Notes under the pieces: generated by a model
Seen by the model: the letters and a program-made list of their open reading frames with translations, nothing else
Databases searched by the model: none
What the model was told of the DNA's origin: nothing
Position numbers and translations under genes: made by a program
IMG/VR virus record: IMGVR_UViG_2548876960_000006
Direction: 5' to 3' (one strand)
DNA: 30,252 nucleotides
Origin: a virus
Taxonomy: Duplodnaviria > Heunggongvirae > Uroviricota > Caudoviricetes
Shown here: positions 29,194-29,375 of the stretch, one piece after another
Position numbering within the stretch: the stretch's first letter is position 1
Layout: the number at the start of each line of letters is the position of its first letter

Positions 29194-29219
29194 AAAAAAG
29201 CCACTCCGTCAGAAGTGGC
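29194..29219 (-). terminator. rho-independent terminator (minus strand) downstream of the tRNA-like fragment
   Basis: Plus strand AAAAAA, GCCACT (29200..29205), 8-nt loop, AGTGGC (29214..29219); on the minus strand the hairpin is followed by TTTTTT. Confidence 0.5.
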
Positions 29220-29247
29220 TTAATTATATGATTATAAAGCTAAAATT

Positions 29248-29282
29248 TGGTGGCCCCTTGGACTTGAACCAGCGCCCGGGCG
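29248..29282 (-). other. tRNA-like 3'-end fragment (T-loop plus CCA end); possible att-site remnant
   Basis: Minus-strand reading CGCTGGTTCAAGTCCAAGGGGCCACCA contains a GGTTCAAGTCC T-loop-type motif and a terminal CCA, with a terminator about 30 nt downstream. No matching 5' half and the T-stem pairs poorly, so it is not a complete tRNA gene. Confidence 0.2.
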
Positions 29283-29375
29283 ATTATAAGTCTTATGGTG
29301 TAACCTTTTGATATTTATATATAAATTTTATTTTTATGTGAATTTTAAGGATCTCTAACCGCTTTATTTTTGGCT

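Follow-up and report, generated by a model that had tools for sequence, protein, structure and literature searches.

The 30,252-nt stretch of DNA analysed here (the window) is a P2-like prophage (Peduoviridae, Quadragintavirus-like) located between mntS and mntR. Its right end is identical to Escherichia coli Combat13F7 (NZ_CP019245.1), in which the block sits in a mntS-mntR island together with a P2-type integrase, CI and CII, and the same complete prophage is carried through attR by a 78.9-kb metagenome contig (L084) at 99.97% identity. Near the right end of the window, two cargo cassettes flank an intergenic region, which contains a tRNA-like fragment. The initial annotation had noticed on the minus strand of this region a T-loop-type sequence with a CCA end, a hairpin with a T-run terminator and a 14-bp palindrome, all of which are present: by inspection, CGCTGGTTCAAGTCCAAGGGGCCACCA lies on the minus strand at 29274..29248, and the palindrome, ATTTATATATAAAT, is perfect (29313..29326). 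The coordinates of the features are collected in Table 1.

Table 1. Features of the tRNA-like relic, its flanks and the att system in use, in window coordinates.
Feature	Position	Strand	Remarks
Active attL core, GCTATATTATA	199..209	+	mntS-mntR intergenic; comparison with empty K-12 site
Integrase in current use (mnt type)	297..1337	-	57% identical to ESSI2_ev015 ileY-type integrase
Cargo cassette 1	28296..29012	-	238-aa gene, P1 PmgQ / P7 HdmD family, annotated glycosyltransferase
Orphan spacer, relic P′ arm to glycosyltransferase gene	29030..29157	-	Homolog only in same prophage
Tandem arm-type repeats GTCCCC-N5-GTCCCC (GTCCCCTTTTTGTCCCC)	29161..29177	-	ileY-type (Quadragintavirus) attP P′ arm
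Intrinsic terminator of P′ arm	29188..29221	-	10-bp hairpin 29221..29198, T-run to ~29188
P′ arm spacer (TTTAGCTTTATAATCATATAATT)	29222..29243	-	Nearly invariant across genera (alignment)
Relic att core	29244..29292	-	tRNA-Ile(CAU) ileY/ileX, anticodon stem/loop to CCA plus AAAT; degenerate
Weak extra tRNA similarity, D-loop/anticodon-stem region	29293..29305	-	GGTTACACCATAA vs GGTTAGAGCAGGC, 8/13
Orphan AT-rich segment	29306..29417	-	Operon terminator and 14-bp palindrome
Cargo cassette 2	29469..30252	-	DUF6338 membrane protein 29626-30252; 54-aa Q/P-rich protein 29469-29633

The attR that matches the left-hand att core adjoins mntR ~2.2 kb past the right window edge (L001 24754-24764), so that the prophage encloses the fragment (~29.25 kb) and ends on the right 3.2 kb beyond it. 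Comparison with an uninterrupted locus (K-12), which the initial annotation had proposed for defining att cores, gave GCTATATTATA, at the left end of the prophage and beside mntR. The fragment was also considered as a copy of this att core, and showed no resemblance to it on comparison.

Low-stringency BLAST searches were performed with the ~390-nt segment that the window shares neither with a Citrobacter amalonaticus prophage nor with SC477. Positions 29305..29191 match a tRNA-Ile-annotated locus, identified as ileY, beside ygaQ/glaH, in 5424 of 5426 complete E. coli genomes (~88%, E ~2e-29), which answers the earlier proposal to compare the fragment with tRNA genes of related genomes. Many P2/186-like phages of ~30 kb likewise have unannotated sites similar to the fragment, Escherichia phage ESSI2_ev015 (Quadragintavirus) giving the best match, with 91% identity over 29290..29158 (E 4e-45). 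Because of these matches to tRNA-Ile loci and P2/186-like attPs, the tRNA resemblance is not a matter of chance. In both ESSI2_ev015 and the Eganvirus BIS20, int is directly followed by the matching segment, which occupies the position of attP. Phage 186 integrates into tRNA-Ile genes (ileY, ileX), where a long common core keeps the tRNA intact (PMC3448106). Base-level alignments show that the window tracks the tRNA/attP core from GACT-TATAATCGC (29292) to CCA-AAAT (29244), and that the sequence after the CCA follows the phage P′ arm, whereas K-12 DNA downstream of ileY is unrelated. One of the two initial readings, a prophage att remnant, is thereby upheld, as both P′ arm and core match P2/186-like attPs.

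The tRNA-derived stretch starts at the anticodon loop/stem (GACTTATAATCGC, 29292), measures ~49 nt and agrees with the canonical attP core at 42 of 48 positions. Its substitutions include C34>T, which changes the anticodon from CAT to TAT, T43C, T44C and T47G, and the 3′ strand of the T-stem bears a 2-nt deletion (CCAGCAGGGG > CCA--AGGGG, that is, CCAGCA > CCA--A). Because of this deletion, the relic T-stem GCTGG/CCAAG pairs at only 3/5 positions, and 10 nt separate the T-loop TTCAAGT from the ACCA, where the T-stem strand and acceptor strand of a tRNA need 12. The poor T-stem described in the initial annotation is therefore real, with the deletion as its cause, but homology extends past the last 27-35 nt and reaches 29292. 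At the other end, the lack of a matching 5′ half was confirmed by alignment with ileY: tRNA positions 1-16 are absent, there is neither a 5′ acceptor strand nor a D-arm, and positions 17-31 are only 8/13 similar. This last likeness (29293..29305; binomial p~0.006, uncorrected), with a divergence far above that of the core, could be chance or real.

As a separate observation, the core substitutions at 29273-29282 create GCCCGGGC, containing a CCCGGG palindrome, at a place where working attPs have GCTTGGTC. The minimum free energy (MFE) fold pairs part of GCCCGGGC with downstream GGGC/GGCC; the palindrome is probably incidental.

Gene detectors, run as had been proposed at the outset, called no gene here. 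ARAGORN returned 0 tRNAs and 0 tmRNAs in the window, while finding the intact tRNA gene in two positive controls (L012 and L014), and Rfam reported nothing at the gathering threshold, and no tRNA or tmRNA even at E<=10 on the 701-nt intergenic stretch. A tmRNA 3′ end was rejected, given the negative ARAGORN and Rfam results and a best homology to tRNA-Ile, as was a functional tRNA-Ile(CAU) gene, given the absence of a cloverleaf call, the missing 5′ half, the broken T-stem and the TAT anticodon. An exact 20-mer of the fragment had no match in IMG/VR or in 185,579 species-representative genomes (one per species), because the 2-nt deletion and the substitutions are peculiar to the relic copy, and no direct repeat that could be a partner att site was found elsewhere in the window.

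Behind the core, the P′ arm shows polymorphism no different from that among working phages. The terminator hairpin, which begins 26 nt past the CCA, is kept in 6 phages/lysogens, with 95% of cells paired and compensatory changes at 3/10 pairs. The GTCCCC repeats lie 67 nt from the relic core, as in relatives; in ESSI2_ev015, GF131 and 17 IMG/VR contigs, a distance of 64-67 nt separates the pair from the core, and homology to the ESSI2_ev015 attP stops at 29158. Within the spacer, AATCATATAATTA resembles the IHF consensus WATCAANNNNTTR and is a putative IHF site. Compared with an active ileY-type attP, the relic possesses the P′ arm spacer, terminator and repeats at conserved spacing, and lacks an intact core, a P arm and a cognate integrase. 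No ileY-type P arm, further GTCCCC site or cognate integrase was found upstream of it, the single integrase being that encoded at 297..1337, and the arm repeats are orphaned because the cognate integrase is absent. Judged from its intact hairpin, the relic terminator is probably still functional and would separate transcription of the glycosyltransferase gene from that of the operon upstream; in that case it would act as a second stop after the terminator of the DUF6338/54-aa operon, read from the sequence as a hairpin at ~29381-29407 with a T-run to 29376.

To place the decay of the core in context, we surveyed all IMG/VR contigs with the arm pair GTCCCCTTTTTGTCCCC (n=62), 17 of which carry a tRNA-Ile-type core 64-67 nt upstream. 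Eight of these 17 cores are identical to the E. coli type at 48/48 positions, five have a T-loop variant with an intact GCTGG/CCAGC stem, and four have a compensated GTTGG/CCAAC stem, as in Klebsiella. The T-arm is thus perfect in 17/17 comparable attPs, whose cores either match at 48/48 or bear compensated variants of host type, and the sole broken one is the window copy. Once an att core is out of use, selection on it should relax, and decay limited to the part that must normally match the host tRNA fits this expectation.

Contigs with two GTCCCC arm pairs, considered as possible stacked relics, proved to carry ordinary attPs that belong to an unrelated type of phage. In one of them (L065 1634-1650 and 1805-1821), GTCCCCTTTTTGTCCCC occurs twice, 171 nt apart, around a non-tRNA core directly after int, and the same double GTCCCCTTTTTGTCCCC is present in L038, L046, L052, L063, L082 and L083, which are unrelated viral contigs with a 390-aa integrase. 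The arm-site motif is apparently used also by another attP architecture.

From 1344 (CI) to 27967 (spike gene; ~26.6 kb), the window and ESSI2_ev015 are collinear and share 86-97% of their DNA sequence, whereas the integrase region is essentially unalignable as DNA; outside the collinear block, the sole further match is the relic itself (29158-29290). The mnt-type integrase is no closer to that of ESSI2_ev015 (57%) than the latter is to an Eganvirus integrase (58%). Repeats CGCGACA/TGCGACA at 306-323 overlap the 3′ end of the integrase gene, and (C/T)GCGACA-N4-TGCGACA is present in both arms of the mnt-type att, in four independent relatives (L001 24675-24692; L002, L003, L006), probably representing arm-type binding sites of the mnt-type integrase. 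Each att type has its own arm repeats (TGCGACA-N4-TGCGACA for mnt, GTCCCC-N5-GTCCCC for Quadragintavirus, TGGCGA-N5-TGGCGG for Eganvirus), all with 11-bp periodicity. The resident integrase has other core and arm sites, and most likely does not use the relic as an att site. Read as a circle, ESSI2_ev015 has the order CI - int(Ile) - attP(Ile) - cargo - spike, and the window has CI - int(mnt) - attP(mnt) - [89 aa, 186 aa, PDC-S64-like, DUF6338, 54 aa], followed after the 54-aa gene by relic core and P′ arm(Ile) - glycosyltransferase - spike.

Relatives at mntS/mntR vary in the genes between the 567-aa spike gene (26076-27779, the last tail gene) and attR. CM2010-0578/1 has a serine acetyltransferase there, SC477 has DUF6338 plus two small genes (mnt-type att), and the C. 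amalonaticus prophage has only the 238-aa gene, 98% identical, directly beside a mnt-type attR. The 238-aa family is a widespread moron beside tail-fibre genes in unrelated prophages; among the relatives examined (Citrobacter mnt-type, other Citrobacter, Salmonella and Pseudocitrobacter prophages, and phage Chlobot), the gene was in no case directly behind an intact ileY-type attP. The other cassette runs past the window end into a 341-aa gene (L001 22574-23599) that matches the PADLOC candidate PDC-S64 (E 2.5e-47). Its DUF6338/54-aa part lies beside a mnt-type att in SC477 and beside an intact ileY-type att in GF131, L024 and L075; exchange between att types is therefore common. Counting the window, the two genes appear jointly as one unit in at least five settings (the window, SC477, GF131, L024 and L075), and they may form a two-gene functional module.

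Around the relic, homology breaks at 29029/29030, 29158, ~29292 and 29418. Homology to the Citrobacter prophage covers 28209-29029 only and homology to SC477 resumes at 29418, leaving ~390 nt common to neither. Searches of viral, genome and metagenome collections with 29030-29157 and 29306-29417 recovered homologs in the same prophage only; the former segment may hold the promoter of the glycosyltransferase gene. The candidate element boundary of the initial annotation is thus a boundary in the sense of a mosaic joint between two cargo cassettes, and not an element edge, the junctions of the element lying at ~199-209 and ~2.2 kb past the window end.

We consider it very likely that the fragment is a fossil attP from ileY-type integration, stranded in a prophage that changed its integration site. 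Because the backbone is 86-97% identical to that of ESSI2_ev015 and the integrase 57%, the integrase/att module appears to have been swapped from ileY to mnt type. With homology to ileY and to attPs, a phage-type arm, active att sites located elsewhere, the difference between backbone and integrase, and decay confined to the core all directly observed, we infer the order and mechanism of the recombination events as follows. The ancestor, like ESSI2_ev015 and 186, would have integrated into the tRNA-Ile(CAU) gene ileY/ileX. Phages of this type carry a tRNA copy (anticodon loop to CCA) just downstream of int, followed by the phage terminator and arm sites, so that integration rebuilds a working tRNA gene ended by the phage terminator. 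In the window lineage, the int gene and P arm would then have been replaced through recombination by an incoming module with the other integrase, an attP(mnt) with core GCTATATTATA and att-proximal cargo (89-aa, 186-aa, PDC-S64-like, DUF6338 and 54-aa genes). The right-hand breakpoint would have fallen at the left edge of the old core, because of which the old core, its P′ arm and the PmgQ-family glycosyltransferase gene would have been retained, 3.2 kb deep. As a match to the host tRNA was no longer required, the core would have gathered its 2-bp deletion and its substitutions; the hairpin of the terminator and the repeats of the arm have stayed intact. The searches recovered neither of the two parents of this recombination, nor homologs of the flanks outside this prophage, so that the crossover point and the direction in which the modules were exchanged are putative. 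A module swap is nevertheless the simplest account of the arrangement in the window.

Alternatively, the relic might stem from a site-specific event instead of general or illegitimate recombination. An ileY-type phage integrase might have inserted its phage at a pseudo-attB after the 54-aa gene of a resident mnt-type prophage of the same family, homologous recombination between the two collinear genomes later deleting one copy, and the product would read pseudo-attB-left, then core-right with P′ arm and glycosyltransferase. The left breakpoint (~29292) indeed coincides with the left limit of identity between attP and tRNA, within the anticodon loop/stem, where strand exchange is expected by analogy with HP1-type systems; the sequence left of the junction is weakly tRNA-like (GACT plus the 8/13), as a secondary site might be, and the existence of family members with both att types and common cargo makes co-residence plausible. 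We nonetheless regard such an insertion as unlikely, as the unrecombined target site was not found in the collections searched, and the placement of the breakpoint within ~20 nt of the core edge, estimated at ~6% by chance in the ~340-nt intergenic region, is suggestive, not decisive. There is a slim chance of integrase-mediated cassette stacking, in which an ileY-type attP core recombined with a pseudo-site in the cargo region of a sister prophage. If this were true, Peduoviridae could enlarge their cargo hotspots beside att one cassette at a time, much as integrons do, with each newcomer bringing or burying an att site; intact arm sites in relics of this sort could still serve incoming 186-like integrases as substrates and promote further cargo exchange. 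The weak likeness at 29293-29305, which a pure attP origin leaves unexplained, would be accounted for by an attL-type chromosomal junction (host ileY 5′ part, core and P′ arm) acquired through aberrant excision or recombination and then decayed: BLAST to the host tRNA reaches ~15 nt further 5′ (29305) than BLAST to phage attPs (29290-29292), and GGTTA..A.CA matches the D-loop/anticodon stem at 8/13. Such a junction is very unlikely, however, since the first 16 tRNA nucleotides are absent, as is any host DNA from upstream of ileY, and divergence leaps from ~10% in the core to ~40% at 29293-29305, unlike in a single decaying unit.

The first reading offered by the initial annotation, a displaced host tRNA 3′ end (attR-type) bounding a separate island with the DUF6338 membrane-protein genes, draws on a classic signature, as tRNA 3′ fragments with CCA mark island ends, and on the low GC content of the flanking genes. 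It did not survive comparison and is hardly credible: downstream of the fragment lies a phage P′ arm and not host DNA, the DUF6338 block has no integrase and represents att-proximal cargo in relatives at both mntR and ileY, and the attR of the prophage lies beyond this block, adjoining mntR. Equally far-fetched is a functional tRNA-like small RNA (a minihelix or a tRNA-Ile(UAU)-like decoy) that would be transcribed from AT-rich DNA on its upstream side and end at its own terminator. The relic does lie between two terminators, and CAT>TAT would read AUA, but no cloverleaf is possible, in line with the negative ARAGORN and Rfam searches, promoter prediction gave no sigma-70-like call upstream, the region folds barely better than shuffled sequences (MFE, z = -1.9), and the sequence is confined to one prophage lineage. 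We see no case for the relic as a small-RNA gene.

As a fossil attP, the relic can be compared with known systems. The attP of 186 and other Eganvirus phages has the same tRNA-Ile(CAU) core from anticodon loop to CCA, and the same conserved spacer and terminator hairpin (PMC3448106), but differs in its TGGCGA-N5-TGGCGG arm repeats, intact core and adjoining cognate integrase, whereas the window relic is decayed, has neither integrase nor P arm, and carries GTCCCC repeats. ESSI2_ev015 shares with the window the backbone, the P′ arm with GTCCCC-N5-GTCCCC and the order att, cargo, spike gene; its core, however, is intact (48/48) and directly follows int, in contrast to the 42/48 core of the window, whose integrase targets mntS/mntR. 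Like tRNA 3′-end repeats at prophage and island borders, the relic is a partial tRNA copy ending in CCA that stems from integrase recombination in a tRNA gene; such repeats flank their element and have host DNA on one side, whereas the relic is internal, has phage or cargo DNA on both sides, and is unpaired in the element. Differing integrases and host sites on related P2-like backbones have been discussed previously (PMC3448106, citing Karlsson et al. 2006, J Bacteriol 188), and the window agrees with that pattern of int/att exchange between close structural backbones, except that the former core and P′ arm were retained and can still be recognised in it. In the literature examined, we found no description of such a retained relic in P2-like coliphages.

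Relics of att sites that derive from a tRNA and were left by an integration-module swap are of a well-known kind, and this new case is not surprising; nor is anything unexpected for P2-like phages in the swap or in the shuffling of cassettes. It leaves a clean, datable scar of the move of a Quadragintavirus backbone from ileY to the mntS-mntR promoter region via int/att swap. Heuristics that use tRNA fragments to set island limits would err here, as the true prophage end lies 3.2 kb further on, at a non-tRNA att site, and a fitting annotation would be a pseudo-att/tRNA-Ile pseudogene remnant. The locus also illustrates how att-side defence and moron cassettes (DUF6338, PDC-S64-like, PmgQ-type glycosyltransferase, serine acetyltransferase) shuffle between phages with different integrases.

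Several further observations concern the att sites in use and the Combat13F7 copy of the prophage. The att core GCTATATTATA lies in a palindromic AGCTATATTATATAGCT region (window 199-213; K-12, L004 1568-1582), a few bases upstream of the annotated rybA/mntS 5′ end (L004 1565), in the mntS promoter/operator region. Integration swaps the DNA upstream of mntS for phage sequence and might alter Mn-dependent regulation of mntS.

NZ_CP019245.1 matches both window ends at 99.9-100% but is without ~23 kb of the interior (window 3164-26229, replication to tail), with a joint at L001 18502-18530 across which a 1740-nt 'hypothetical protein' is annotated; the metagenome contig L084 carries the part from tail to attR intact. 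The missing ~23 kb reflects either a real deletion derivative or an assembly collapse. In addition, the 186-aa and 89-aa RefSeq coding sequences by attR (L001 23674-24570) correspond to a single 310-aa open reading frame in L084 (7603-8535), which suggests a frameshift or pseudogene in Combat13F7.
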